Part shown: positions 3,003-58,501 of the stretch, piece after piece
Numbering within the stretch: position 1 is the stretch's first letter
How the letters are laid out: the number at the start of each line of letters is the position of its first letter
Assembly: GCF_055900595.2 (NCBI RefSeq)
Contig: NZ_CM148325.1
Reading direction: 5' to 3' (one strand)
Length of the DNA stretch: 64,000 nt
Program-made: the position numbers and the translations under genes
The notes under the pieces: model-generated
Database searches by the model: none
The model's input: only the letters and a program-made list of their open reading frames with translations
What the model was told of the DNA's origin: nothing

Positions 3003-3803
3003 TTACGATAAATAGAGTTTACGCAGATAATGCGGCACCGCGTCGTCGGCATTAGTACCAATCACTTCCAGCTCCGGATGCAGATCTTTCAGACGCTGGT
3101 GCGCACTGCCCATAATGCAGCCTTTACCTGCCATCGACAGCATTTCGGCGTCGTTCATCCCGTCACCAAAGGCAATACAATCTTTCAGACTGTAGCCCAG
3201 TTTCTTCGCTACCGCTTCCAGGGCATGGCCTTTTGAAACGCCACCCGCCATCACTTCCAGACAAGTTAGGGTAGAGAAGCTGACGTTGACGCGATCGCCC
3301 CAACGAGCGTTGATTGCCTGCTCCAGCGGCAGCAGTTGCTCATGGGAATCGCAGGTGAAGAACACTTTGCTGACGCCTTCCGGCTCCAGTAATCCTGGCT
3401 CATACAGCGCATATTTGAACACCGCTTCTTTAAAAAAGCGCATCTCTTCCGGGCGGTGGCGATTCATAAACCATTCGTCGTCGCGATAAACGTTAGTAAT
3501 GATGTCCGGGTTGTCGTTGACCACGCCAAACAGATCGCTGGCAATGTCGCGATCCAGGTTATGAGCAAAAATCAGATTGCCATCCAGATCGTGAACACGC
3601 GCGCCATTGGAGGTAATCATGTAAGACTTAATCTCCAGATTATCGCGAATTTGCCCTACATCAACGTGGTGGCGACCGGTCGCAAACACAAAGTTAATGC
3701 CGCGCGCGGTGAGCAGCTTCAGAGTTTCTTTGGCGTAAGGGGATAACGTATGGTCGGGAGAAAGTAACGTGCCATCTAAATCAGACGCAACAACCTGGTA
3801 CAT
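3003..3803 (-). CDS. yigL: HAD-superfamily sugar-phosphate phosphatase YigL
   Basis: Track ORF 3003..3929 trimmed to the internal ATG at 3801-3803, giving MYQVVASDLDGTLLSPDHTLSPYAKETLKLLTARGINFVFATGR (the HAD DxDGT motif), 266 aa. Immediately downstream of pldB, as in the pldB-yigL operon. Confidence 0.9.
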   Translation of the reverse strand: MYQVVASDLDGTLLSPDHTLSPYAKETLKLLTARGINFVFATGRHHVDVGQIRDNLEIKSYMITSNGARVHDLDGNLIFAHNLDRDIASDLFGVVNDNPDIITNVYRDDEWFMNRHRPEEMRFFKEAVFKYALYEPGLLEPEGVSKVFFTCDSHEQLLPLEQAINARWGDRVNVSFSTLTCLEVMAGGVSKGHALEAVAKKLGYSLKDCIAFGDGMNDAEMLSMAGKGCIMGSAHQRLKDLHPELEVIGTNADDAVPHYLRKLYLS

Positions 3804-3810
3804 AAGAAAT

Positions 3811-4833
3811 TTAAACCTCTGTAGAGCGGTTTCCGCTGGGTGAGTTATGCCTGTTGAAAAAATCAACAATGGCGTGGAGCGCGACTGAGCGCATTGCGTC
3901 CTTTTCAAAAAGGATCTCATGGTACGCACCTTTAATTACCAGCGGTCGTCCCCCTTCGACAGGATGGCCCGCAGCGGTGCGGAGTTCACAAAAACGGTCG
4001 TGCATGCGGTTATCCACCACGCGTTCCTCTTCAGCCTGCAAGAGAAGCGTTGGCGTGGCGTCATCACCCGCACCGGCTAACACCTGTTCGCCAGCCAGAA
4101 TACTTTCGCGTACCCAATGGTAGGTCGGCCCACCGACGCGAATCGTTGGGTCATCAGCATAGAAGCGTAAGTTACGTCGATATCGCTGTCTGCTGTGGGT
4201 CAGTACGTTGATAGCAAACGGCAACGCGCGCCAGCGCCCGGTGCCTATTGCATAGCCATCACGGAAACGGGGATGCGCTTCGGCCCAGTTAAGGATCTGC
4301 CGCGCCATAAATGACGGCATACGAATCACGATCCCAAACATTGGCGCAGTTAGCGCAATGGCGTCACATACACCTGGATGGCGTTGCAGAAATAACGTGG
4401 AGATCGCACCGCCCATCGAATGTGCCAGTATATAGCGCTTACGCCACGGACCGGGCTGGACCTCCTGTTGCCAGAATGCCGCCAGATCATCAACATAATC
4501 ATTAAAGCGATTAACATGCCCAAGATGCGGATCGGCTAACAGGCGACCGGAACGTCCCTGCCCGCGATGGTCGATGATTAAGACATCAAACCCCAAATGG
4601 AACAGGTCGTAGGCCAGTTCCGCATATTTTACGTAGCTCTCAATACGCCCCGGGCAGATGACTATCACCCGGTCATGGTGCTGTGCGCGAAAACGGACAA
4701 AGCGCACCGGAATGTCATCTACACCAGTAAACTCTGCTTCATCACGCTGACGCCAGAAATCAGTCAGCGGTCCCATGGTAAAAGCAGCAAACGCGTTTTC
4801 TCTTGTTTCCCAGTCTTTTTGCTGCTGAAACAT
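3811..4833 (-). CDS. pldB: Lysophospholipase L2
   Basis: 340-aa ORF (MFQQQKDWETRENAFAAFTMGPL...), alpha/beta hydrolase with a GHSMGG nucleophile elbow. Length and sequence match PldB. Confidence 0.95.
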   Translation of the reverse strand: MFQQQKDWETRENAFAAFTMGPLTDFWRQRDEAEFTGVDDIPVRFVRFRAQHHDRVIVICPGRIESYVKYAELAYDLFHLGFDVLIIDHRGQGRSGRLLADPHLGHVNRFNDYVDDLAAFWQQEVQPGPWRKRYILAHSMGGAISTLFLQRHPGVCDAIALTAPMFGIVIRMPSFMARQILNWAEAHPRFRDGYAIGTGRWRALPFAINVLTHSRQRYRRNLRFYADDPTIRVGGPTYHWVRESILAGEQVLAGAGDDATPTLLLQAEEERVVDNRMHDRFCELRTAAGHPVEGGRPLVIKGAYHEILFEKDAMRSVALHAIVDFFNRHNSPSGNRSTEV

Positions 4834-9823: not shown

Positions 9824-10714
9824 ATGGACACCAAACAAACGCGGCAGGGCGTATTACTCGCTCTTGCCGCTTATTTTATTTGGGGTATTGCGCCAGCGTA
9901 CTTCAAGCTGATTTACTACGTGCCCGCCGATGAGATCCTGACGCATCGCGTGATCTGGTCGTTTTTCTTTATGGTGGTGCTGATGAGCATCTGCCGCCAG
10001 TGGTCTTATTTAAAAACGCTGATTCAGACGCCACAGAAAATTTTTATGCTGGCCGTCTCTGCCGTACTGATTGGCGGCAACTGGCTACTGTTTATCTGGG
10101 CGGTGAACAATCACCATATGCTGGAAGCGAGCCTCGGTTATTTTATTAACCCACTGGTGAATATAGTGCTGGGAATGATTTTCCTCGGCGAGCGATTCCG
10201 CCGGATGCAATGGCTGGCGGTGATTCTGGCGATATGTGGTGTGTTGGTTCAGTTGTGGACTTTTGGTTCACTGCCGATTATCGCGCTGGGGCTGGCGTTT
10301 AGTTTTGCCTTCTACGGCCTGGTACGCAAGAAGATTGCTGTTGAAGCGCAAACCGGCATGTTAATCGAAACTATGTGGCTGCTGCCCGTGGCGGCGATTT
10401 ACCTGTTTGCTATTGCCGACAGCTCAACCAGCCATCTGGGGCAAAACCCGATGTCGCTGAATTTACTGCTGATCGCCGCCGGTATTGTCACTACCGTACC
10501 GCTGTTGTGTTTTACTGCGGCTGCGACACGCCTGCGTCTCTCAACGTTAGGCTTTTTTCAGTATATTGGCCCGACGCTGATGTTCCTGCTGGCTGTGACG
10601 TTTTATGGTGAAAAACCGGGTGCCGATAAGATGGTGACCTTCGCCTTTATTTGGGTGGCGCTGGCAATTTTTGTGATGGATGCGATTTATACGCAGCGTA
10701 GAACGTCCAAATAA
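9824..10714 (+). CDS. rarD: EamA/DMT-family inner-membrane protein RarD
   Basis: The track ORF starts at a TTG at 9818; the ATG at 9824 gives MDTKQTRQGVLLALAAYFIWGIAPAYFKL..., the RarD N-terminus (296 aa). Confidence 0.9.
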   Translation: MDTKQTRQGVLLALAAYFIWGIAPAYFKLIYYVPADEILTHRVIWSFFFMVVLMSICRQWSYLKTLIQTPQKIFMLAVSAVLIGGNWLLFIWAVNNHHMLEASLGYFINPLVNIVLGMIFLGERFRRMQWLAVILAICGVLVQLWTFGSLPIIALGLAFSFAFYGLVRKKIAVEAQTGMLIETMWLLPVAAIYLFAIADSSTSHLGQNPMSLNLLLIAAGIVTTVPLLCFTAAATRLRLSTLGFFQYIGPTLMFLLAVTFYGEKPGADKMVTFAFIWVALAIFVMDAIYTQRRTSK

Positions 10715-10801
10715 ATATATTCTGAAAAAATATGCCGACTCTTGCATGAGAGTGGGCATATTGTCATGCTGACAGGAGACTCACACAAGGATGTAAAATT
10801 T

Positions 10802-11182
10802 ATGTTGCGTATATTTATCCCAACATCTAACGGTAAGATTTCCAGACGTCGTTATATATTTTCATTTATTTTAATAAATTTCATTTTTGCCTTTCTTATT
10901 ATCTTTTTTAACGATGGGGACGCAGGTTTTCTTGTTATTGTCTCTACCATCGCACTCCATTATCTCGTCATCAACATGAATTGCCAACGACTCCGTGATA
11001 GTGGTTTCATATATATAAAAACTTATGTTTTTGGTACATTAGCAGTATATATCATCTCTATCATCACAATGATAGCCGAACATTTTGATTGTTCAGGCAA
11101 TGGTTCGATGATTTTTTTGATTTGTTATTTTTCTACTTTCAGTATGCTAATGCTTGCACCTACTGATTCATCAAAACAATAG
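10802..11182 (+). CDS. yigG: Small inner-membrane protein YigG
   Basis: Track ORF trimmed to the ATG at 10802 ([36 protein letters not shown]..., 126 aa). AT-rich coding sequence, located between rarD and yigF. Confidence 0.8.
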
Positions 11183-11195
11183 TTATGGAGTATTT

Positions 11196-11576
11196 ATGAG
11201 TAAGGAATATATGAACGATGGTTCATTAAGTGAAAAATGGAAATATCGCTTTAGTTTTTATGATCAACATGGCTTTCCTGGATTCTGGGGGGCAACACCA
11301 GAATATAAAGCAGCATTTAAAGCATTAAAAGTAAGACAACGATTAACTATTCAAATTAATTTCATTGCTTTCTTCTGTTCCTGGATCTATCTATTTGTTC
11401 TGGGTTTATGGAAAAAAGCAATTATAGTTCTATTACTTTGCATTCTATCTCTATTTGTTGGTGCACTAATTGGCGTTAACATTTTGGGAATTGCCGTAGC
11501 AGCCTATGTTGCTGTTAACACGAACAAATGGTTTTATGAGAAAGAGGTAAAAGGGTTAAATACCTGGAGCCTTTGA
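11196..11576 (+). CDS. yigF: Small inner-membrane protein YigF (DUF2628-type)
   Basis: Track ORF trimmed to the ATG at 11196, preceded by a GGAG Shine-Dalgarno (MSKEYMNDGSLSEKWKYRFSFYDQHGFPGFWG..., 126 aa). AT-rich. Confidence 0.8.
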   Translation: MSKEYMNDGSLSEKWKYRFSFYDQHGFPGFWGATPEYKAAFKALKVRQRLTIQINFIAFFCSWIYLFVLGLWKKAIIVLLLCILSLFVGALIGVNILGIAVAAYVAVNTNKWFYEKEVKGLNTWSL

Positions 11577-20970: not shown

Positions 20971-22449
20971 ATGCACTATCGCAATGTGGTTTGTTTGTTG
21001 TCTTGTTCGTTATTCTTATCCCCGGCATGGGGATGTCGGCTTTCCGCGCCTGAACATAATATTTACCAGAAACAGGGAAAAGGCGTGGTGTACCTGCGCC
21101 CTTATAAAGAAACAAATCTTTCTCTACCTGACGTGAATTACAAGAGTTTGCGTCGTTTACCTAATTTATTAATAGACGCAACAACACAAGATGAATGGAA
21201 TAAAGAACCACCTCTGACTGATCTAACAACTGACAACCTCTATGAGGGCGCACAAGCCTGGTATCCCCATTACTCCTGGCATAGCGATGGTCGCTATATC
21301 CTCTACGCGGGTGAAGTAGTGCAAAATCCTCACGACGCACCACCCGTCGATATCGCCTCATTCAAGGCATGGGGAGATTTTGCCGCGGATAAACACAGTC
21401 TCTATTTTGAAGGCAAGCGCACCGATAACAATGGCGGGGGAAATAGCTTAGATATCAAAACACTGCATCAGGTGGAATTCCGGCCTCCCTGGGATCCTGA
21501 CTTACTGGGGCTGATATTACGTGACGCTAATTTCTTGTATATCAATGGGCATCGCCTCGCAGATCCCGATAGTTTCCGTGTGCTGGCACAAAAGTCATGG
21601 GATCAGCGAGGAAAGTTTTCTACCGCGTTTAATCCCTGTGTGGCTATGCCATTTGGCCCCTGGGATACCCTGGCTCGTACACGGACCAAAATCCTGATCA
21701 ACGGCGAACAGCTTGATGCCGACCCGGACACCTTTTCCGTCGTGCGCTGGATGCCCGGCTCACTCTTGACCTGGCGTGATAAAAACGGGCTACAGCGTAA
21801 AGTCCTCGACAAGGAAAATCTGGCGTGGGATGAAGATTTAACAAAGCACTGTCTGGATTTTTCTCTGCTGGAAAAGAAAGTGTTCTGGCGTAAAGGGCCT
21901 GCTTGTAAACAGGAAGAATTACCGGGGCTCGATCCTGAACAGTTCCACCCCATCAGTGATGCTGTCGCCCAGTATCAGGATTCGCTTTATACCATCATCG
22001 AAACAGAGTCTGGTGACCGCAAGCTGGAGATCGTAAAACTTGATGATCCCAATCTTATTATCAACAAACGTTTCAACGCCGGGAAACGCCATGGCTATTT
22101 ACTTACGCGTGCCGAAGGGTGGCCAAACCATTCCGGTTTACACGTGTTTGAATCTGACGGACCGCTGATCTTACTGGATAACCACTCTCCGGATGAACGC
22201 GAAGCCCATCTTGATGACCATCCCTTTTTGCGCAGATGGTATGCCCGCGATAACCGCTACGTTTACAGCTTTGATGGCGCGCAGCTCTGGCGATACCGCA
22301 CTGCGGATCCGAAACAAGTTCGCTTAATCTGGAAGGAACAACATTCGGGATATGGCTACGGGGTAAATTACAAAACGGGATATCTGGACGGAAAAATTAC
22401 CGATGACGGCGAATTTATTCCTGCCCCGCGCAATGAGGCGACAAAATGA
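20971..22449 (+). CDS. Secreted protein with DKNYY-like repeats (paralogue 1); function unknown
   Basis: Track ORF 20941..22449 trimmed to the ATG at 20971, with AGGA 7 nt upstream. Hydrophobic signal-like N-terminus MHYRNVVCLLSCSLFLSPAWGC. Recurrent motifs DKHSLYFEGKR, DANFLYINGHRLADPDSF and DNRYVYSFDG. Family assignment is by motif recall, not a database search. The segment looks AT-richer than its flanks by eye. Confidence 0.75.
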   Translation: MHYRNVVCLLSCSLFLSPAWGCRLSAPEHNIYQKQGKGVVYLRPYKETNLSLPDVNYKSLRRLPNLLIDATTQDEWNKEPPLTDLTTDNLYEGAQAWYPHYSWHSDGRYILYAGEVVQNPHDAPPVDIASFKAWGDFAADKHSLYFEGKRTDNNGGGNSLDIKTLHQVEFRPPWDPDLLGLILRDANFLYINGHRLADPDSFRVLAQKSWDQRGKFSTAFNPCVAMPFGPWDTLARTRTKILINGEQLDADPDTFSVVRWMPGSLLTWRDKNGLQRKVLDKENLAWDEDLTKHCLDFSLLEKKVFWRKGPACKQEELPGLDPEQFHPISDAVAQYQDSLYTIIETESGDRKLEIVKLDDPNLIINKRFNAGKRHGYLLTRAEGWPNHSGLHVFESDGPLILLDNHSPDEREAHLDDHPFLRRWYARDNRYVYSFDGAQLWRYRTADPKQVRLIWKEQHSGYGYGVNYKTGYLDGKITDDGEFIPAPRNEATK

Positions 22450-23774
22450 AAGGTCAAATAATCACTGTTGCACTCATCCTGTTGGGGCACATATTTCTGA
22501 CGCCTGCTGTACAGGCCATAGGGTTCGACTATTACAATGATCACGGTGTTATGTCTTACGGTAAAGGTTATGGGGAGGATGAGAAAATCATTGCCCAATT
22601 TCCGAAGATGAACAGAGCCGATTTACGCCTTGTGACAAATATATCCAGGGAGCGGGAGTTGGTGGAAGGCTATATACCCACCGATGAAATAAGCATAAAA
22701 AATGAGGAATACCACTGGGTGACAGACGGCCGCGTTATTCTCTGGCGTGGCAAAATCGTTAGCAATCCACCGGGAACACCCACTGTCGATATTGCCAGCT
22801 TTCAGGCTATGGGCCGCTTCGCGGTCGATAAATATAGCCTCTATTTTGACGGACAGCGCACCGAAAGTAATAGCGGCGCGTCACGTGTTGATCTGGCGAC
22901 ACTAAAAGCTATCGAAGGTAACTCTACCACGCTGGTGGATAGTAAAAATCTCTATTTGTCCGGTCGACGTCAGGGGAGCAGCAGTAATGTTACTGTATTA
23001 GAAAAAAGATGGTGGGGTATTAATCCACGTCTTATGAGTGTAAACAGAAATTTGTATTCCAATGATCTGCTTATCCGCAGTGGGCAGAATATTTATTTAA
23101 ATGGCGTTCACCTTACGGCGAATGCAGACTCATTTGAGATAATTCGCTGGATACCTCATTCACTGCTGGTTTTTCGCGACAATAAGGGTATGCATCGTTA
23201 TCCCTTTGGGCAATTGTCTGGCAAAGCGATACCCGTAGATGATGACGTCTCTTTTGAAGTAGGGGAAAGTCGCGTTCGCTGGCGTAAACAGCTCACGTCC
23301 GACCGTCAGTGGAGCCAGTGGATAGACCTACCAGGTATTGAACCTGAACAATTTCATCTGATTACTGACAATATTGCGCAGTATAAAGATCGGCTGTATG
23401 TAACAAAATTATCGACTTTTGGTGAAGACCAGCTTGAAATAATCCCGCTGGATTTGCCAGACCTGGTCATTGATCACTCATTTAATCGCGGCAAACAGCA
23501 TGCTTACTTTATCCACCAATTACGGTCACGCAAGAGCGTGCAAATTATTCCAGTTAACGGCCCGCTAACTAAAAACGATCGCTTTGCTTATGACGATCGC
23601 AATGTTTATACATGGACCGATACAGAGGTAAGGATTACACCCTCCCCCTGCCCAGCGAAAACATACGTCAGAGAAAAGAATGTCCGTGAAATTCATAATA
23701 GCGACATTATTATTCCGGTGACGGAGGAATCGTGCCGGAACGCAGCAGCAGACGGGCAAACTTTGAAGCCCTGA
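22446..23774 (+). CDS. Secreted protein with DKNYY-like repeats (paralogue 2); function unknown
   Basis: 442-aa ORF whose ATG overlaps the stop of the upstream gene (ATGA at 22446-22449), with GAGG 8 nt upstream. Sec-type signal MKGQIITVALILLGHIFLTPAVQA. Alignable blocks shared with paralogue 1: W.SDGR.IL..G..V.NP...P.VDIASF.A.G.FA.DK.SLYF.G.RT and G..PEQFH.I.D..AQY.D.LY. Confidence 0.75.
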   Translation: MKGQIITVALILLGHIFLTPAVQAIGFDYYNDHGVMSYGKGYGEDEKIIAQFPKMNRADLRLVTNISRERELVEGYIPTDEISIKNEEYHWVTDGRVILWRGKIVSNPPGTPTVDIASFQAMGRFAVDKYSLYFDGQRTESNSGASRVDLATLKAIEGNSTTLVDSKNLYLSGRRQGSSSNVTVLEKRWWGINPRLMSVNRNLYSNDLLIRSGQNIYLNGVHLTANADSFEIIRWIPHSLLVFRDNKGMHRYPFGQLSGKAIPVDDDVSFEVGESRVRWRKQLTSDRQWSQWIDLPGIEPEQFHLITDNIAQYKDRLYVTKLSTFGEDQLEIIPLDLPDLVIDHSFNRGKQHAYFIHQLRSRKSVQIIPVNGPLTKNDRFAYDDRNVYTWTDTEVRITPSPCPAKTYVREKNVREIHNSDIIIPVTEESCRNAAADGQTLKP

Positions 23775-23821
23775 CACCATGCCGCTATACTGCCGCCATC
23801 ACCTAAAAACAGGAAACAACA

Positions 23822-31258: not shown

Positions 31259-31858
31259 ATGTCAAAATTGCGCACGCCGTCCCGCTATCTTTTCCGCTTG
31301 CCATCGCATGAAATTACTCCTTTTCGGGCAACGCTCTTTTTAATCTTGTTGATATGTGCCGCTCTGGCTGGCGTAAGTTGGCTGATTATTTCCTTTGTGC
31401 GTACGGGCAATACATTCATCTTCTGGTTAACACTTTTTATTGGGTATCTGATAGCTGCGGCGAAGCAGGAAAAAATCAAGCTCCTCAAGAAGTACCGAAT
31501 CATGGCAGATAAACGTCGGGTACGCTCCATTTGCCAGTTCGCCCGCGAATTTGACACCTACACCGTAGATACATGGGTGATTCGTGCGGTGTGGGATACC
31601 TTGCAAGGAAACGGCTATATCGATTACCCACTGCCACTGAAAGCCGATGATATACTGGACGATGATCTGGATTTGGTGCGCGACGCAGTCGAGTTAGAAG
31701 AGCTGGTTGAAGATACCGCTGCTCGTTGCGGGCGCGATCTATGCGGAATAGAAGAGAATCCGTTTCTTCCCATCGTCACGGTAGGCTCTCTTGTAAGAGT
31801 TTTAAACGCGCAACCGATGACCCAGGAGCGACGTAACCAGTTCTTTATTCGGTCATAA
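31259..31858 (+). CDS. Hypothetical membrane-anchored protein (two predicted transmembrane helices and an acidic cytoplasmic domain); function unknown
   Basis: 199-codon ORF starting 7 nt after the hemY terminator T-tract, with its stop (TAA, 31856-31858) overlapping the 3' end of GlmZ on the opposite strand. N-terminus TLFLILLICAALAGVSWLIISFV / FIFWLTLFIGYLIAAA; C-terminal acidic stretch DDILDDDLDLVRDAVELEELVED. Ordinary codon usage by eye. No convincing Shine-Dalgarno (only AGG abutting the ATG). I do not recognise the protein. Confidence 0.5.
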   Translation: MSKLRTPSRYLFRLPSHEITPFRATLFLILLICAALAGVSWLIISFVRTGNTFIFWLTLFIGYLIAAAKQEKIKLLKKYRIMADKRRVRSICQFAREFDTYTVDTWVIRAVWDTLQGNGYIDYPLPLKADDILDDDLDLVRDAVELEELVEDTAARCGRDLCGIEENPFLPIVTVGSLVRVLNAQPMTQERRNQFFIRS

Positions 31859-32063
31859 AAAAACGCCTGCTCTTATTACGGAGCAGGCGTTAAAACAGGT
31901 CTGTATGACAACAAGTGGGTGCTTCACTCAACGTTGTGTCCATGGTGTCTGATGAGGCATAAGCGACATCTGTCAGTGGACGATAAGCACCGTAAACGGC
32001 TCTGCGTCATTCCGGAGTTTATGAGGCACTAAGGCGAACATAAGAGATGGAATGAGCATCTAC
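31857..32063 (-). ncRNA. glmZ: Small regulatory RNA GlmZ (activator of glmS translation)
   Basis: Reverse complement of 31857-32063 reads GTAGATGCTCATTCCATCTCTTATGTTCGCC...AACGCCTGCTCCGTAATAAGAGCAGGCGTTTTTTT, matching GlmZ (207 nt) including its 3' terminator hairpin and U-tract. Lies between hemY and aslA as expected. Confidence 0.9.
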
Positions 32064-32487
32064 TCGTTTAGTATGCCACAGAGAACCGGGAAATAACATC
32101 CCTTAACACTTGTTATGAGATAATTCTGTAATCCTCTTTGCTTCCTGAGTAATAACTTCCTGAGTGAATATTTCTCCTGCGCACGATTCTACACATATAT
32201 ATAATGAATAATAAAAGTCATTCAATTAATAATATATATATTAATTGCCATTAAAACTAAAAACAGCATCAATAATCAACGCGATATAACATCACCGCCT
32301 TACATATCACCTGCGCCAGAGGTAGGATTGAAAACGCTCTCCTGATTTTCAAATTCATTATCTGGATAAATAAATAATTTATTTTCATCACTATTATTTA
32401 TGCAATCATCCTGTCAGGGAGAGGGATCTCAATTATCAATGCTTAATTACGTCAACATTTTGACGACATGAAACCGGAGCATTTTGC

Positions 32488-34143
32488 ATGGAATTTTCGT
32501 TTTCACCCAAACTTCTTGTTGTGGCTGTCGCCGCCGCTCTTCCACTCATGGCCAGCGCAGCAGATACCCCGTCAACCGCCACCGCACGCAAAGGCTTTGC
32601 CGGATACGATCACCCAAACCAGTATCTGGTTAAACCGGCGACCACTATTGCCGACAACATGATGCCGGTGATGCAGCATCCTGCACAAGACAAAGAAACC
32701 CAGCAGAAGCTGGCGGAATTAGAGAAAAAGACCGGTAAGAAACCGAACGTGGTTGTTTTCTTGCTGGATGATGTGGGCTGGATGGACGTTGGCTTTAACG
32801 GCGGCGGCGTGGCGGTGGGTAACCCTACACCAGATATCGACGCCGTTGCCAGCCAGGGGCTGATTTTAACTTCGGCGTATTCTCAACCGAGTTCTTCCCC
32901 AACCCGCGCCACGATTCTCACCGGACAATACTCCATCCACCACGGCATTCTGATGCCGCCAATGTACGGGCAACCGGGCGGTCTGCAAGGGTTAACCACT
33001 CTGCCGCAGTTGCTGCACGATCAGGGCTACGTCACCCAGGCCATCGGGAAATGGCATATGGGGGAAAACAAAGAGTCGCAGCCGCAGAACGTTGGCTTTG
33101 ATGATTTCCGCGGCTTTAACTCGGTATCCGATATGTATACCGAATGGCGTGATGTTCATGTCAACCCGGAAGTCGCCCTGAGCCCGGATCGTTCTGAATA
33201 CATCCAAAAACTGCCGTTCAGCAAAGATGACGTTCATGCCGTGCGCGGCGGTGAACAGGAAGCCATTGCCGACATTACGCCGAAATATATGGAAGACCTG
33301 GATCAACGCTGGATGGAATATGGCGTTAAGTTCCTCGACAAGATGGCGAAGAGCGATAAGCCTTTCTTCCTCTACTACGGCACTCGCGGCTGTCACTTCG
33401 ATAACTACCCAAATGCGAAATATGCGGGTAGCTCTCCGGCGCGCACCTCTTACGGCGACTGCATGGTGGAGATGAACGATATCTTCGCCAATCTGTATAA
33501 AGCACTGGAGAAAAACGGTCAGCTTGATAACACGCTGATTGTGTTCACCTCTGATAACGGTCCGGAAGCTGAAGTTCCGCCGCACGGTCGCACGCCGTTC
33601 CGCGGTGCGAAAGGTTCTACATGGGAAGGCGGCGTTCGTGTGCCAACCTTCGTTTACTGGAAAGGGATGATCCAACCGCGTAAATCTGACGGTATTGTCG
33701 ATCTGGCGGATCTCTTCCCTACGGCGCTGGATCTGGCAGGACATCCTGGAGCGAAAGTGGCGAATTTAGTGCCGAAAACCACCTTTATTGATGGTGTGGA
33801 CCAGACATCTTTCTTCCTGGGAACAAATGGTCAGTCTAACCGTAAGGCCGAGCACTACTTCCTCAACGGCAAACTTTCTGCTGTGCGTATGGATGAGTTT
33901 AAATATCACGTACTCATCCAACAGCCATACGCTTATACCCAGAGCGGGTATCAGGGTGGATTCACCGGCACAGTAATGCAAACGGCGGGATCGTCGGTGT
34001 TTAACCTGTACACCGATCCGCAGGAAAGCGACTCTATCGGCGTGCGCCATATCCCAATGGGTGTACCGCTACAGACCGAAATGCACGCGTATATGGAGAT
34101 CCTGAAAAAATATCCGCCGCGCGCGCAGATTAAATCTGATTAA
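32488..34143 (+). CDS. aslA: Arylsulfatase-like protein AslA (Ser-type sulfatase)
   Basis: 551-aa ORF with a signal peptide ([27 protein letters not shown]) and the sulfatase signature around [15 protein letters not shown] (S-x-P-x-R). Convergent with aslB. Confidence 0.95.
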
Positions 34144-34179
34144 GCCGGCGCTATCGCTACATCGGGCCACACTGACCTT

Positions 34180-34282
34180 GCCGGATGCGGCGTGAACGCC
34201 TTATCCGGCCTACAAGCCTTGCAAATTCAATAAATTGCAGCGTCCTGTAGGCCGGATAAGATGCGTCAGCATCGCATCCGGC
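34180..34282. repeat. BIME: two inverted REP elements between aslA and aslB
   Basis: GCCGGATGCGGCGTGAACGCCTTATCCGGCCTAC (34180-34213) and the inverted GTAGGCCGGATAAGATGCGTCAGCATCGCATCCGGC (34247-34282). Confidence 0.8.
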
Positions 34283-34317
34283 AATCAACCGCAGGCGGCC
34301 ACAAAATGGCTGCTTTT

Positions 34318-35553
34318 TTACTTATTCACCACCATCAAATGCGCCTGCATAATGTCGCTGGCCGGGCGACCGTGCGCCAGCAAATCAGCCATTGCTTTAA
34401 GATATGGCGGTAGATAGCGGAAATAACGCTGATACCCGGCACACAAATAATTCAGCCCCGGCTTACCGCTGGCATCGAGCATAAAGCGGTGTTTCGGGCA
34501 GCCTCCCCAACATGCTTTTAACACGTTACAACTGCGACACTGCGCCGGTAACTGCTTAAATTTATCTTCTCCAAACACCTGCTGCTGCGGGGAATCTAAC
34601 ATTTCTGCAATTGTTTGCTGAAGCATATTCCCTAGTCGATACTGGGGATAAACATAGTGATCGCAGGCATAAACGTCACCGTTGTGCTCAACAATCACCG
34701 AGCGTCCACAGGTCGGCTGATGATGGCAAACCGCGCCCGGTGCGCCAACAAAATTGGCGAACGCCCATTCGATATTCATTACGAAAATCTTACCGACGTC
34801 GCGCTTAATCCAGTGGTCGAAAATCGCCACCAGAAACTCACCGAACTCATCGGGGCGCACCGACCATTCTGTCAGTTCCCCCTGAATATCACCAGGCGCA
34901 TGTAATTTCAGTCCATTGCGGGCAGCTGTTTCATCAGCCAGGCGCTCCACCACCGGAATAAACTGGATGAACTCCACGCCTGCATTGCACAAAAAATCAT
35001 AAACCTGTAACGGTTGCTGCGCGCTGGTGCGGTTGACACAGACCAGCACGTTATAGTCGACATGATGTTTTTGCAGGAGCGTCAGGGCACGCATCACCAG
35101 CTTATGCGTGGGTCTGCCACCTTTGGTCACGCGATATTGATTGTGGATCTCAGCCGGACCGTCCAGCGATAACCCAACAAGAAAATGATTTTCTGCCAGA
35201 AATGCACACCACTCATCATCAAGCAGCACACCGTTAGTCTGGAAGCTGTTACTTACCTTCCTACCAGCACCATATTTCGCCTGTAGCGCCACGGCACGGC
35301 GGTAAAAATCCAGCCCGAGTAACGTTGGTTCGCCGCCCTGCCAGGTAAAAGCCACTTCGTTTTGGGGTTCGCTGGCAGCGATATAGTGACGGACATACGC
35401 TTCCAGCGTGTCATCGTCCATATGCGCAACTGGCTTTTCGCGGTAAAGGGATTGTTTTTCGAGATAAAAACAGTAGTCACAGTTCAGATTACAATCGGAA
35501 CCGCTTGGTTTCGCCATCACATGAAAAGCACGCGTTGGAACCTGTTGCAGCAT
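34318..35553 (-). CDS. aslB: Anaerobic sulfatase-maturating enzyme homologue AslB (radical SAM)
   Basis: Track ORF trimmed to the ATG at 35551-35553 (MLQQVPTRAFHVMAKPSGSDCNLNCDYCFYLEK...). The CxxxCxxC radical-SAM motif is CNLNCDYC. Confidence 0.9.
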   Translation of the reverse strand: MLQQVPTRAFHVMAKPSGSDCNLNCDYCFYLEKQSLYREKPVAHMDDDTLEAYVRHYIAASEPQNEVAFTWQGGEPTLLGLDFYRRAVALQAKYGAGRKVSNSFQTNGVLLDDEWCAFLAENHFLVGLSLDGPAEIHNQYRVTKGGRPTHKLVMRALTLLQKHHVDYNVLVCVNRTSAQQPLQVYDFLCNAGVEFIQFIPVVERLADETAARNGLKLHAPGDIQGELTEWSVRPDEFGEFLVAIFDHWIKRDVGKIFVMNIEWAFANFVGAPGAVCHHQPTCGRSVIVEHNGDVYACDHYVYPQYRLGNMLQQTIAEMLDSPQQQVFGEDKFKQLPAQCRSCNVLKACWGGCPKHRFMLDASGKPGLNYLCAGYQRYFRYLPPYLKAMADLLAHGRPASDIMQAHLMVVNK

Positions 35554-35664
35554 GGTCGCTCCTTGCCTGAAGTCATCCTTCAATACGTTAAGGGCGAAAT
35601 CATACCGTGTAGCAATGAGTGACTACGGGCGTTTATTGCGAAGGGAGAGTGATGAAATGCACAG

Positions 35665-35693
35665 AAAACAAAAAACCCCGCCGAAGCGGGGTT
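35665..35693 (-). terminator. Rho-independent terminator of the argX-hisR-leuT-proM tRNA operon
   Basis: Minus strand reads CCCCGC–TTCG–GCGGGG followed by TTTTTTGTTTT, directly 3' of proM. Confidence 0.75.
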
Positions 35694-35699
35694 CAAAAT

Positions 35700-35776
35700 T
35701 GGTCGGCGAGAGAGGATTCGAACCTCCGACCCACTGGTCCCAAACCAGTTGCGCTACCAAGCTGCGCTACTCGCCG
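35700..35776 (-). tRNA. proM: tRNA-Pro
   Basis: Reverse complement is CGGCGAGTAGCGCAGCTTGGTAGCGCAACTGGTTTGGGACCAGTGGGTCGGAGGTTCGAATCCTCTCTCGCCGACCA (77 nt, CCA encoded). Confidence 0.97.
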
Positions 35777-50595: not shown

Positions 50596-50785
50596 AATGC
50601 ATGCTCTCAGAGAAAATTATTAGCAGAAGTATAACCACGAAGACCTTTATTCAGAAGGGAAAGTCCGTTCCGAACCCACCAGTCCTGTGCAAAAATTAAT
50701 CATTCGATATGCAAATTGCATAACACACGAGCAAAACCCAGGAATTTTCCTAACATTGCCAGTGCGGCAATAAGATTACAGATAT

Positions 50786-50820
50786 AAAAGCAAAACGCCA
50801 CGTAAACACGTGGCGTTTTT
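50786..50820 (-). terminator. Intrinsic (bidirectional-looking) terminator downstream of rho
   Basis: Perfect palindrome AAAACGCCACG–TAAACA–CGTGGCGTTTTT with A/T runs on both sides, 15 bp after the rho stop codon. Confidence 0.7.
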
Positions 50821-50834
50821 GGCATAAGACAAAT

Positions 50835-58051: not shown

Positions 58052-58501
58052 GTGGCGATTAATTTCAGCCCCAAGGTTGGTGAAATACTGGAATGCAACT
58101 TTGGTAACTATCCTGTTAGCCAGAATGGACAGTTCAGCACGACGTATTACGATGGCCGCATTCCACCTGAGATGATAAAAAATAGGTTGGTTGTCGTGCT
58201 CAACGGAAAAATTAATGGCAACGCATGTATCGTCGTTCCATTATCAACCACTCGCGACCATGACAAGTTAAATCGTGGAATGCATGTTGAAATAGCCAGT
58301 AATGTTATCAATGACCTGCAATTCTTTGATCAGCAGATACGTTGGGCTAAAGCCGACCTGGTACAACAAGTCAGTCGAAACCGATTAAACAGAGCAAGGA
58401 CTTATCGGGGGTATCTTAATCAATGTTTGCCACATGAGTTGGTTGCAGACATACAGAGGGCAGTCATCAAGTCAATCAATGCCATATCGCTCATAAATTG
58501 A
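58052..58501 (+). CDS. yifN: PemK/MazF-like (yifN-type) protein, apparently intact
   Basis: Track ORF 58010..58501. I prefer the GTG at 58052 because AAGGAGAGG lies 7 nt upstream. PemK/MazF-like blocks: PKVGEILECNFG (compare P-x-x-G-E/D-I/L-W), RLVVVLNG and CIVVPLSTT. Similarity judged by eye only. Confidence 0.65.
   Translation: MAINFSPKVGEILECNFGNYPVSQNGQFSTTYYDGRIPPEMIKNRLVVVLNGKINGNACIVVPLSTTRDHDKLNRGMHVEIASNVINDLQFFDQQIRWAKADLVQQVSRNRLNRARTYRGYLNQCLPHELVADIQRAVIKSINAISLIN

Follow-up and report, generated by a model that had tools for sequence, protein, structure and literature searches.

A glmZ promoter at the edge of AT-rich, probably H-NS-prone DNA upstream of aslA in Escherichia coli

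The 424-bp spacer between the small RNA gene glmZ and the arylsulfatase-like gene aslA of Escherichia coli is probably to be understood as the known divergent glmZ–aslA control region, with the glmZ promoter at one edge and, over the remainder, AT-rich and H-NS-prone upstream DNA of aslA that belongs to a larger aslB–aslA (aslBA) segment. The locus, the glmZ promoter and the signals for H-NS and RpoD in genomic SELEX have all been published already (Göpel et al., 2011; Shimada 2014); what follows concerns the way in which the parts of the spacer may be assigned to its two genes, and how the arrangement may have arisen.

The spacer was analysed within a 64-kb stretch of DNA (here called the window), which comes from E. 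coli and is 100% identical to E. coli Z0117EC0005. It fills the entire gap between the 5′ end of GlmZ and the ATG of aslA (positions 32064–32487; Table 1), exactly as had been set out in a preliminary description made from the letters alone: Rfam places the GlmZ end at 32063, aslA begins at 32488, the two genes diverge (glmZ on the minus strand and aslA on the plus strand), and the 57-nt TA-repeat tract quoted there occurs once, at 32193–32249. The glmZ gene is 100% identical to that of K-12, and its +1 (32063) sets the left edge of the spacer. The K-12 counterpart (3986008–3986431) is also of 424 bp and is 93% identical. The spacer is a core, single-copy region of E. coli, found in 5407 of 5426 complete genomes. 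On the other side of glmZ, this strain differs from K-12 in having an extra ORF of 196 aa between hemY and glmZ.

Table 1. Features of the glmZ–aslA spacer and its surroundings (positions are those of the window)
Feature	Position	Strand	Remarks
glmZ sRNA gene	31857..32063	-	Rfam RF00083, 218.4 bits, model 1-214 of 214 (full length)
Minimal glmZ promoter region, -1 to -40, 45% G+C	32064..32103	-	Sufficient for full activity in K-12
glmZ extended -10: TGG (32078..32076) and CATACT (32075..32070)	32070..32078	-	
Lineage-specific segment of ~3.58 kb: spacer, aslA, REP region, aslB and aslB upstream DNA	32081..35661	.	
glmZ -35 hexamer ATGTTA	32094..32099	-	Same in all 11 Escherichia alleles
Sigma-70-like site TTAACA-18-TGTAAT	32103..32132	+	~350 bp from aslA ATG
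Tandem 15-bp direct repeat CTTCCTGAGTAATAA / CTTCCTGAGTGAATA	32141..32170	.	
AT-rich tract 1, 22.7% G+C (77% A+T over 110 bp)	32181..32290	.	Holds both spacer TATATATA runs
G+C-normal island between AT tracts, 50% G+C	32291..32340	.	
AT-rich tract 2, 20% G+C (80% A+T over 65 bp)	32341..32405	.	A/T-only 20-bp run, 32366-32385
aslA-proximal region	32406..32487	+	Most conserved part of spacer, 83% invariant columns
aslA, arylsulfatase-like, 551 aa	32488..34143	+	

The spacer had been called extremely AT-rich, and rightly so: it has 33.5% G+C, compared with 52.1% for the window and 46.9% for the window's intergenic DNA (36 regions), of which it is the longest region and, among those of more than 60 bp, the lowest in G+C. 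The 100 bp of lowest G+C in the whole 64 kb starts within it, at 32195 (19%), and an equally low 424 bp is found at one other locus only (about 10700–11550). Two of the four A/T-only runs of at least 15 bp in the window are here (32224–32246 and 32366–32385), TpA steps are 2.4 times as dense as in the window (0.102 versus 0.043), and the spacer has two of the window's four copies of TATATATA (0.41 expected; none of 100 shuffles reached four). This AT-richness is well beyond chance. It is concentrated in the two tracts on either side of the island, and the 40 bp next to glmZ has 45% G+C.

Several smaller elements can be discerned within this layout. Tract 1 has a near-palindrome, CAATTAATA-N7-TATTAATTG, at 32223–32247 and a conserved block, AAAAACAGCATCAATAATCAACGCGATA, at 32259–32286, and most of a second block, CCAGRGGTAGGATTGAAAAYGCTCTCCTGAT (32316–32346), falls within the island; this second block hardly varies between E. 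coli and E. albertii. The aslA-proximal region contains a third block, GAGAGGGAYCTCAATTATCAATGCTTAATTACG, at 32419–32451, then a small polymorphic dyad or hairpin (CGTCAA-CATT-TTGACG, 32450–32465), and finally the aslA Shine–Dalgarno sequence GGAG (32476–32479). The tandem repeat nearer to glmZ is variable in copy number, strain STLIN_13 having one copy.

Deletions and point mutations have been used to map the glmZ promoter of K-12 (Göpel et al., 2011, NAR 39:1294; PMC3045617), which has the sigma-70 extended −10 motif ATGTTA-N15-tggCATAAT; in the deletion series, DNA upstream of −40 was dispensable for activity, and GlrR did not bind to a fragment extending from −424 to +32. In K-12, then, the promoter has been shown by experiment to need neither GlrR nor sigma-54. 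The same Escherichia-type pattern of −35 hexamer, 15-nt spacer, TGG and −10 hexamer is found here from −36 to −7 (32070–32099), with one deviation, an A>C change at −8 (window base 32071) that gives CATACT where K-12 and 10 other alleles have CATAAT. The exact 60-nt promoter allele with CATACT is present in 9 of 5426 genomes. By its sequence identity with the K-12 promoter, that of the window is to be expected to be constitutive. In strain PSS-16, a natural IS1 insertion at about −51 has left intact the 50 bp next to glmZ, and with them the promoter, which indirectly favours its independence of the DNA farther upstream. The preliminary description, which reasoned that the spacer must contain the glmZ promoter, was thus right about the spacer as a whole, but the promoter lies outside the AT-rich core; the core cannot be upheld as control DNA for glmZ. 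Since the promoter is in the edge with 45% G+C, and since everything upstream of −40 is dispensable, the AT-richness is not about glmZ.

No GlrR site (TGTCN10GACA) was found in the 424-bp spacer at up to two mismatches; at up to one mismatch there is none within 260 bp upstream of glmZ, where taxa with sigma-54-type promoters have 2–4, and the 16-mer at −27 mismatches the sigma-54 motif TGGCAC-N5-TTGCA at 9 of its 11 specified positions (1–3 in most other genera). The spacer resembles the aslA–glmZ region of K-12 (PMC3045617) in this lack of GlrR and sigma-54 elements, and also in being at the same locus and keeping the −35 ATGTTA, the N15, the TGG extension and the +1. It departs from K-12 in its −10, CATACT, and in its B2-like haplotype of the AT core, as well as in the additional ORF mentioned above.

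How, then, might the AT-rich core act? In the preliminary description the region was taken to be curved, and intrinsic curvature was supposed to recruit nucleoid proteins and to set both promoters. AT-rich DNA upstream of promoters is often curved (stated also in Shimada 2014, PMC3946193), and at 32460–32490 there is a local bend at the 93rd–98th percentile. Against this, a Bolshoy-type dinucleotide wedge model (with controls as expected: end-to-end/contour ratios of 0.32–0.39 for phased A6 and 0.97 for unphased) gave ratios of 0.95–0.98 for the 210-bp segments starting at 32000–32270, which take in the AT tracts and are straighter than 67–97% of segments of the window; those starting at 32330–32360, on the aslA-proximal side, were somewhat more curved than average (15th–17th percentile). 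In this model the tracts are straighter than average because they are rich in TpA rather than in phased A-tracts: A-tracts of at least 5 are few, the tracts alternate T and A, and no phasing of A-tracts at 10–11 bp was found. As the AT-rich part is also dispensable for glmZ (Göpel et al., 2011; PMC3045617), the description of the spacer as curved was not borne out, and curvature as the governing principle appears improbable.

Binding by nucleoid proteins, which had likewise been proposed, has in vitro support in the literature. In genomic SELEX with K-12 DNA, the aslA<>glmZ spacer is listed both for H-NS and for RpoD holoenzyme (Shimada 2014, PMC3946193), the H-NS flag being given per spacer and not at base resolution. 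The spacer also has the A+T content of an H-NS-silenced region (77% over 110 bp and 80% over 65 bp, TpA-rich), and TGGATAAATA, in tract 2 (32363–32372), agrees in 8 of its 10 bases with TCGATAAATT, the high-affinity motif of H-NS. An excess of IHF- and Fis-like sites in a consensus scan was discounted, as it only mirrors the A+T content. In the literature that could be searched, no in vivo H-NS ChIP data were found at aslA–glmZ, nor an expression value for aslA in an hns mutant. The one expression result for an hns mutant that the search did yield concerns aslB, which is up 12.9-fold, through its own promoter via GadE/RcsB. On the strength of the sequence and the SELEX listing, silencing of aslA by H-NS from the spacer is plausible.

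Comparison with better known cases shows likenesses and differences. Like the H-NS-bound ‘type-A’ divergent spacers (Shimada 2014, PMC3946193) and the classic H-NS-silenced control regions such as bgl and proU, the spacer has an A+T content far above that of the genome, abundant TpA steps, divergent genes, a listing as a target of H-NS and RpoD holoenzyme, and a neighbouring gene with little or no laboratory expression. Unlike all of these, it has a short AT core (~225 bp, in two tracts), flanking genes of ordinary G+C and, in the glmZ promoter, a constitutively active neighbour; and for aslA, derepression in hns mutants is a prediction.

On the aslA side, no mapped transcription start was found in the literature search, and a sigma-70 consensus scan gave no plus-strand site in the spacer. 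The best plus-strand match to a position weight matrix, TTGAAA-16-CAAATT, reaches the 90th percentile of background, and in K-12 it scores lower, this matrix scan being uninformative here because the known glmZ promoter is itself not among the top matches. The site TTAACA-18-TGTAAT (Table 1), printed as the aslA-side promoter by Shimada 2014 (PMC3946193), is a prediction only, and neither E. albertii nor the divergent clade conserves its −10. The aslA gene is not completely silent: qRT-PCR has detected its mRNA in E. coli K1, both in blood and following treatment with LL-37, and the rise with LL-37 is RpoE-dependent, though indirectly.

These circumstances leave room for a more specific form of regulation, in which the AT tracts would be incidental, H-NS would have no decisive role, and aslA would need a dedicated activator or alternative sigma factor acting at the conserved blocks (32259–32286, 32316–32346 and 32419–32451). 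The blocks do not vary between E. coli and E. albertii, Pseudocitrobacter retains them in part, and that at 32316–32346 is a candidate site for such a regulator, or for an aslA −35 (TTGAAA). The absence of a plus-strand sigma-70 promoter above background, the LL-37 response, and the fact that aslB, in the same segment, has GadE/RcsB as regulators of its own promoter elsewhere, and a reported RpoN promoter, all speak in the same direction. On the other hand, H-NS binding to the spacer has been reported (Shimada 2014, PMC3946193), and scans for GlrR, sigma-54, CRP (by consensus) and the GAD box were at background, the best match to the GAD box (GadE/RcsB), which was rejected, being 12/20 against a background mean of 11.4. 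A specific regulator is compatible with our main explanation; as an account that dispenses with a decisive part for H-NS, it is possible but on balance somewhat doubtful.

A quite different view would be that the spacer is functionless filler, either an insertion scar or the product of AT-biased drift without selection. A hot patch at 32170–32222 (the left part of tract 1), in which there are two old haplotypes, differs between the window and K-12 at 11 of 53 positions, about the synonymous rate; indels occur in the repeats and in a poly-A run; and 32% of E. coli genomes have a deletion of aslA. However, the divergence of the whole spacer is well below that of third-codon positions of aslA (6.8% versus 16.7% between the window and K-12, and 18.5% versus 28.8% between the window and E. 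albertii), the stretch 32117–32169 has no differences between the window and K-12, and 60–83% of columns are invariant over 11 alleles including that of E. albertii. Moreover, length is held at 402–428 bp in three genera (in Kluyvera, where it can be only roughly bounded, it is 400–520 bp). That all this is filler seems very improbable.

It is extremely unlikely that a small protein gene or a structured non-coding RNA has gone unannotated in the spacer. There are two minus-strand ORFs of 40 codons (32103–32225 and 32269–32391), an out-of-frame ATG at 32468, and the small hairpin 5′ of the Shine–Dalgarno sequence; but the first ORF has stop codons in the K-12, O157, divergent-clade and E. albertii alleles, and the second in those of APEC O1, the divergent clade and E. 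albertii. A search of the spacer against Rfam at E ≤ 1 gave no match besides GlmZ, and its folding was no better than that of shuffled sequences (z-scores of −0.4 and −0.5). For the hairpin, one apparent compensatory change was seen, in E. albertii; but E. coli itself has four imperfect variants of it, as quasi-palindrome mutation would produce, and the case for a functional structure is not convincing. A long inverted repeat (32327–32342 and 32418–32433) was also set aside, both arms being conserved with no covariation.

The origin of the spacer is illuminated by a comparison that took in 47 usable glmZ loci of Enterobacterales together with the window. In the five in which aslA is the neighbour (three from Escherichia, and those of Kluyvera genomosp. 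1 and Pseudocitrobacter faecalis), the 400 bp upstream of glmZ has 30–33% G+C, and sigma-54 and GlrR elements are absent at glmZ. Wherever 170 bp or more upstream of glmZ was available, the other loci all have 38–51% G+C, and most of these keep TGGCAC-N5-TGCA at −27 together with 2–4 GlrR-like sites. From the restriction of the AT-richness to loci with aslA as neighbour, and the accompanying lack of sigma-54 and GlrR elements, it follows that the spacer is the end of a 3.6-kb aslB–aslA segment. GlrR sites have also been lost with no aslA present, in Klebsiella oxytoca, Superficieibacter and four Citrobacter. The idea that the short GlrR-less spacers of these three genera are scars of aslBA deletion gained no support, since homology between them and the segment was found only at the proM terminator and at glmZ.

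The borders of the segment are the conserved terminator of proM (tRNA-Pro) and about −17 of glmZ, and only at these points does homology with other genera resume. The interval from proM to glmZ is 3612–3636 bp in the three Escherichia loci. The tRNA-Pro gene was located in 27 non-aslA taxa, and in 25 of these the interval is 145–528 bp, the exceptions being Erwinia persicina (1588 bp) and Brenneria roseae (~8.3 kb). The segment therefore lies, like an islet, between flanks that are contiguous in related taxa. It shares with tRNA-adjacent genomic islets its position (two genes directly downstream of a tRNA operon terminator), its AT-rich regulatory end and its patchy distribution (Escherichia, Kluyvera genomosp. 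1 and Pseudocitrobacter), with frequent secondary loss of aslA. Unlike them, it is fixed in essentially all E. coli; neither an integrase nor direct repeats nor duplication of a tRNA fragment could be found, its annotation shows only aslA and aslB, and its ends showed no homology to the spacers of other taxa. The coding G+C of aslA and aslB (0.50–0.60) is like that of neighbouring genes and of the genome. In composition, therefore, the segment is not foreign except in its control region.

The glmZ and glmY promoters that depend on sigma-54, GlrR (QseF) and IHF in Yersinia, Salmonella, Enterobacter and others have the same downstream gene and the same +1, and their −10/−12 region can still be aligned with the Escherichia type (TGTGnCATAAT versus TGTGCAATAAT) to about −17. 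Beyond that the likeness ends: this locus has no TGGCAC −24 element, none of the three TGTCN10GACA sites and no IHF sites, and the tRNA-Pro interval is 3.6 kb, compared with 258–528 bp in sigma-54-type taxa. Göpel et al. (2011; PMC3045617) explained this difference between glmZ promoters by mutations that accumulated gradually. We lean slightly towards another history, in which the arrival of aslB–aslA would have rewired glmZ from sigma-54/GlrR(QseF) control to constitutive sigma-70 transcription in Escherichia, Kluyvera genomosp. 1 and Pseudocitrobacter. The AT-rich end of the segment, abutting glmZ at about −17, would have taken away the −24 element along with the enhancer and brought in a new −35 (ATGTTA), and the spacer would then double as the captured upstream half of an sRNA promoter. 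Outgroups and the logic of the glmY paralogue, in place of a resolved tree, suggest that aslBA was gained and not lost many times over.

The main explanation may now be put together. The first ~36–40 bp carry the sigma-70 glmZ promoter, here with the rare A>C change at −8, and the other ~385 bp are the upstream region of aslA, with two tracts of ~78–80% A+T around a conserved island, followed by a promoter-proximal and ribosome-binding segment. The tracts would provide DNA that is straight, flexible and ready to melt, such as H-NS nucleates on, and H-NS (or H-NS/StpA) may coat or bridge both of them and occlude a weak, probably activator-dependent aslA promoter; expression of aslA would thereby be low in laboratory culture, and the glmZ promoter, at the edge, would escape. 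Since that promoter is constitutively active at only ~80–120 bp from tract 1, any H-NS filament must stop short of it. In the genera with aslBA, the ancestral −24 element and the GlrR and IHF sites would have disappeared, and the glmZ −35 would be supplied by the segment.

For the preliminary description this means a correction: the AT-rich core serves aslA, or simply travels with it, and does not serve glmZ. As aslA is a marker of invasion in ExPEC and meningitis strains, an H-NS-prone control region is useful context for it. The rare −10 variant CATACT could change the dosage of GlmZ in a small lineage. The rewiring, if it did take place, would account for the escape of glmZ from QseE/QseF (GlrK/GlrR) control in Escherichia, and such an escape would bear on the uncoupling of the GlmY/GlmZ cascade from virulence signalling.

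The AT-rich region that the preliminary description had placed between glmZ and aslA is real, correctly located and non-random: its limits are exactly those of the gap from the GlmZ 5' end to the aslA ATG, and its G+C content is 33.5%, whereas the window as a whole has 52.1% and its 36 intergenic regions 46.9%; of these regions the spacer is the longest, and no other above 60 bp is as poor in G+C. The K-12 gap is also 424 bp, and Escherichia coli strain Z0117EC0005 is 100% identical to the window. On the plus strand the order starts with hemX, hemY and a hypothetical 196-aa ORF; beyond aslA come aslB (minus strand) and a tRNA cluster (Pro-Leu-His-Arg). The AT-richness is uneven (the 40 bp adjoining glmZ have 45% G+C). 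The lowest-G+C 100 bp in all 64 kb start at 32195, and the 57-mer first singled out occupies 32193-32249. Two of the window's four A/T-only runs of at least 15 bp fall in the spacer, as do two of its four copies of TATATATA (0.41 expected in the window), and TpA steps are 2.4-fold enriched. The sole other site in the window with an equally AT-rich 424-bp stretch (yigI and the start of rarD, about 10700-11550; minimum 30.7% G+C) is largely coding, unlike the spacer.

Features of the glmZ-aslA region and other features of the window
Feature	Position	Strand	Detail
DKNYY family protein genes	20972-23792	minus	two, overlapping; between cyaY and lptM
196-aa hypothetical ORF	31268-31858	plus	between hemY and glmZ terminator
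glmZ	31857-32063	minus	Rfam RF00083, 218 bits, full length
glmZ +1	32063	minus
glmZ -10	32075..32070	minus
glmZ TGG extension	32078..32076	minus
glmZ -35	32099..32094	minus
Spacer glmZ-aslA	32064-32487
AT tract 1	32181-32290		22.7% G+C
Island between AT tracts	32291-32340		50% G+C
AT tract 2	32341-32405		20% G+C
aslA	32488-34143	plus
aslA-aslB gap	34143-34350		convergent
rho-wecA intergenic region	50596-50834
PemK/MazF-family toxin gene	58052-58501		between ppiC and rep

Comparison of glmZ loci anchored on the GlmZ 5' end (47 usable Enterobacterales loci, one genome per species, plus the window) suggests that the AT-rich DNA goes with aslA and not with glmZ. Only in Escherichia (E. coli, a divergent 'E. 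coli' clade and E. albertii), Kluyvera genomosp. 1 and Pseudocitrobacter faecalis is aslA the divergent neighbour of glmZ, and exactly these loci have 30-33% G+C over the 400 bp upstream of glmZ, with no sigma-54 element or GlrR-like sites; the spacer is 402-428 bp long in Escherichia and Pseudocitrobacter and an estimated 400-520 bp in Kluyvera, where the aslA alignment begins at residue 39. Where 170 bp or more of upstream sequence was available, the remaining loci have 38-51% G+C there. Most of them keep TGGCAC-N5-TGCA at -27 with two to four GlrR-like sites, and in most the argX-hisR-leuT-proM operon has its tRNA-Pro gene just 145-528 bp upstream of glmZ, in the same orientation. In Escherichia this distance is 3612-3636 bp, occupied by aslB, aslA and the spacer, and homology with other genera stops right after the proM terminator, to restart at about -17 of glmZ (TGTGnCATAAT). 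Because the Pseudocitrobacter spacer has conserved blocks and the -35 region in common with Escherichia, the spacer appears to be part of a segment of common origin.

In the lineages that carry it, the aslBA segment would stand where the ancestral enhancer was, and would provide the sigma-70 promoter with its -35. Göpel et al. (2011; PMC3045617) ascribed the difference between glmZ promoters to divergence by mutation; rewiring of glmZ by segment replacement is a more specific hypothesis, which the data favour without proving it. GlrR sites have also been lost without aslA, in Klebsiella oxytoca, Superficieibacter and four Citrobacter, whose spacers are 145-201 bp long and show no trace of the aslBA segment on alignment. 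Such unusually short proM-glmZ spacers are found in K. oxytoca (L110), Superficieibacter (L124), Citrobacter spp. (L005, L014, L030, L065) and Pluralibacter gergoviae (L032), all with zero or almost zero GlrR-like sites and a sigma-54 element that is degenerate or missing, which suggests a second, deletion-type route out of GlrR control; in Citrobacter sp. R56 the sigma-54/GlrR architecture is complete.

The glmZ side of the spacer is already solved in the literature. Göpel et al. (PMC3045617) found that DNA upstream of -40 is dispensable, that mutation of the -35 or -10 abolishes expression, and that GlrR does not bind a fragment from -424 to +32; our scans of the entire spacer likewise gave no GlrR site or sigma-54 promoter, which sets it apart from the sigma-54/GlrR promoter class. 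The spacer does, as proposed, hold the glmZ promoter, but at its normal-G+C edge and not in the AT-rich core. In E. coli PSS-16 (locus L132) a natural IS1 insertion (IS1A, 3051-3816) has taken the place of all DNA between about -51 of glmZ and a point within aslA, whose 5' part is lost, but the core promoter is intact. The region belongs to the published Escherichia-type promoter class, with one rare variant: the -10 is CATACT, not CATAAT, owing to A>C at -8 (window base 32071), a change seen in none of ten other Escherichia alleles. The exact 60-nt promoter allele occurs in only nine of 5426 complete genomes (isolates of dog, human and goat origin). It is the same half of the hexamer in which mutation abolished K-12 activity (Göpel et al., PMC3045617), and CATACT may plausibly make a weaker glmZ promoter.

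The spacer is present, in single copy, in 5407 of the 5426 complete E. coli genomes. Its identity to K-12 (93.2%) is near that of aslA (93.9%) and hemX (93.4%). Third-codon positions of aslA, with 16.7% differing, are far less conserved than the spacer; against E. albertii the difference is 18.5% in the spacer and 28.8% at third positions. Differences from K-12 are concentrated in 32170-32222 (11 of 53), with none in 32117-32169. Eleven aligned alleles revealed two old haplotypes of the AT core, a 15-bp tandem repeat (32141-32170) of varying copy number, a 7-bp duplication and poly-A length changes, together with long invariant blocks (32259-32279, 32316-32346, 32419-32451 and the ribosome-binding-site region). 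Given these blocks and the low divergence relative to third positions, much of the spacer is under constraint, which argues for specific cis elements besides generic AT-richness. In practice aslA is accessory: an internal 601-bp probe matches 3696 of 5426 complete genomes (68%); the spacer is kept in 99.6%. Loci L129-L131 and L133 bear on loss of the aslA body (32626-34143), and O178:H19 2012C-4431 and similar strains have only a 138-bp 5' aslA stub followed directly by aslB.

For the aslA side, a mapped transcription start and aslA expression in an hns mutant were not found in the literature reached. A sigma-70 consensus scan of the plus strand gave no site, and the best weight-matrix match (TTGAAA-16-CAAATT, about 32328-32355) reached only the 90th percentile of background; as the matrix overlooks the real glmZ promoter, such prediction is of little help here. 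For the proposed nucleoid-protein binding there is published in-vitro evidence, resolved to the level of the spacer: Shimada et al. (2014; PMC3946193) include aslA<>glmZ in their 'type-A' spacers, which bound RpoD holoenzyme in genomic SELEX, and flag an H-NS SELEX site in it. The promoters printed there are predictions from best matches, and the string given for glmZ, TTGAGA-17-GATGAT, is some 340 bp away from the true one. The sequence suits H-NS preference: it is AT-rich and TpA-rich, and 32363-32372 agrees with TCGATAAATT at 8/10 positions. In composition and published in-vitro binding the spacer conforms to the H-NS-targeted type of AT-rich divergent spacer. In an hns mutant the neighbouring aslB is up 12.9-fold, but this effect is indirect, through GadE/RcsB, and acts on a separate aslB promoter close to tRNA-Pro. 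The proposed silencing of aslA may occur; the gene is not wholly silent, its mRNA being detected by qRT-PCR in E. coli K1, with indirect RpoE dependence.

The suggestion that the spacer is curved was not borne out. Our dinucleotide wedge model (Bolshoy-type parameters) behaved as expected on controls, with end-to-end/contour ratios of 0.32-0.39 for phased A6 and 0.97-1.0 for unphased tracts and (AT)n. Over the AT tracts (210-bp segments starting at 32000-32270) it gave 0.95-0.98, straighter than 67-97% of all segments of that length in the window, and the A-tracts inventoried are short and unphased, unlike those of phased-A-tract curved DNA. The aslA end is predicted to be mildly curved (0.88-0.91, 15th-33rd percentile, for starts at 32300-32480, into aslA). 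'Flexible and easily melted' is a better description than 'curved'; the near-palindrome CAATTAATA-N7-TATTAATTG (32223-32247), folding marginally better than shuffles (z = -1.9), could possibly extrude. The window's strongest predicted bend lies outside the spacer, at about 50621-50830: the rho-wecA intergenic DNA is predicted to be far more curved (ratio 0.48; peak 69.7 degrees per 31 bp at 50742).

The spacer hides no gene or RNA. Rfam at E<=1 matched only GlmZ, and folds of 32300-32500 (z = -0.5) and 32104-32487 (z = -0.4) were no better than shuffles. Two 40-codon minus-strand ORFs were rejected, having stop codons in several other Escherichia alleles (among others, the first in K-12 and the second in APEC O1). 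A small dyad or hairpin at 32450-32465 immediately precedes the Shine-Dalgarno; E. albertii has a single compensatory change in it, but its four imperfect variants within E. coli preclude a functional claim.

Among neighbouring features, the 196-aa ORF, convergent with glmZ, is replaced in K-12 by only 82 bp, and no more than about 692 of 5425 E. coli genomes cover its part of the query; the protein has hydrophobic N-terminal helices and an acidic C-terminal half, with no Pfam, NCBIfam or PADLOC family. The aslA-aslB gap has REP/BIME-like palindromes and sub-threshold Rfam matches to naRNA4 (40 bits against a gathering score of 59.5) and ES036. aslB starts 146 bp downstream of tRNA-Pro, co-directional and just past the conserved proM terminator (35554-35699, 35662-35704); read-through from the tRNA operon into aslB is conceivable. 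Elsewhere, the DKNYY pair looks like an accessory insertion, its overlap of about 95 bp suggesting a split or frameshifted gene, and the PemK/MazF-family gene has no antitoxin partner in the annotation table.

The finding of this spacer is, then, already known biology. Only mildly new are the apparent travelling of AT-richness with aslA, the account by which segment replacement would have rewired glmZ, and the rare -10 allele.
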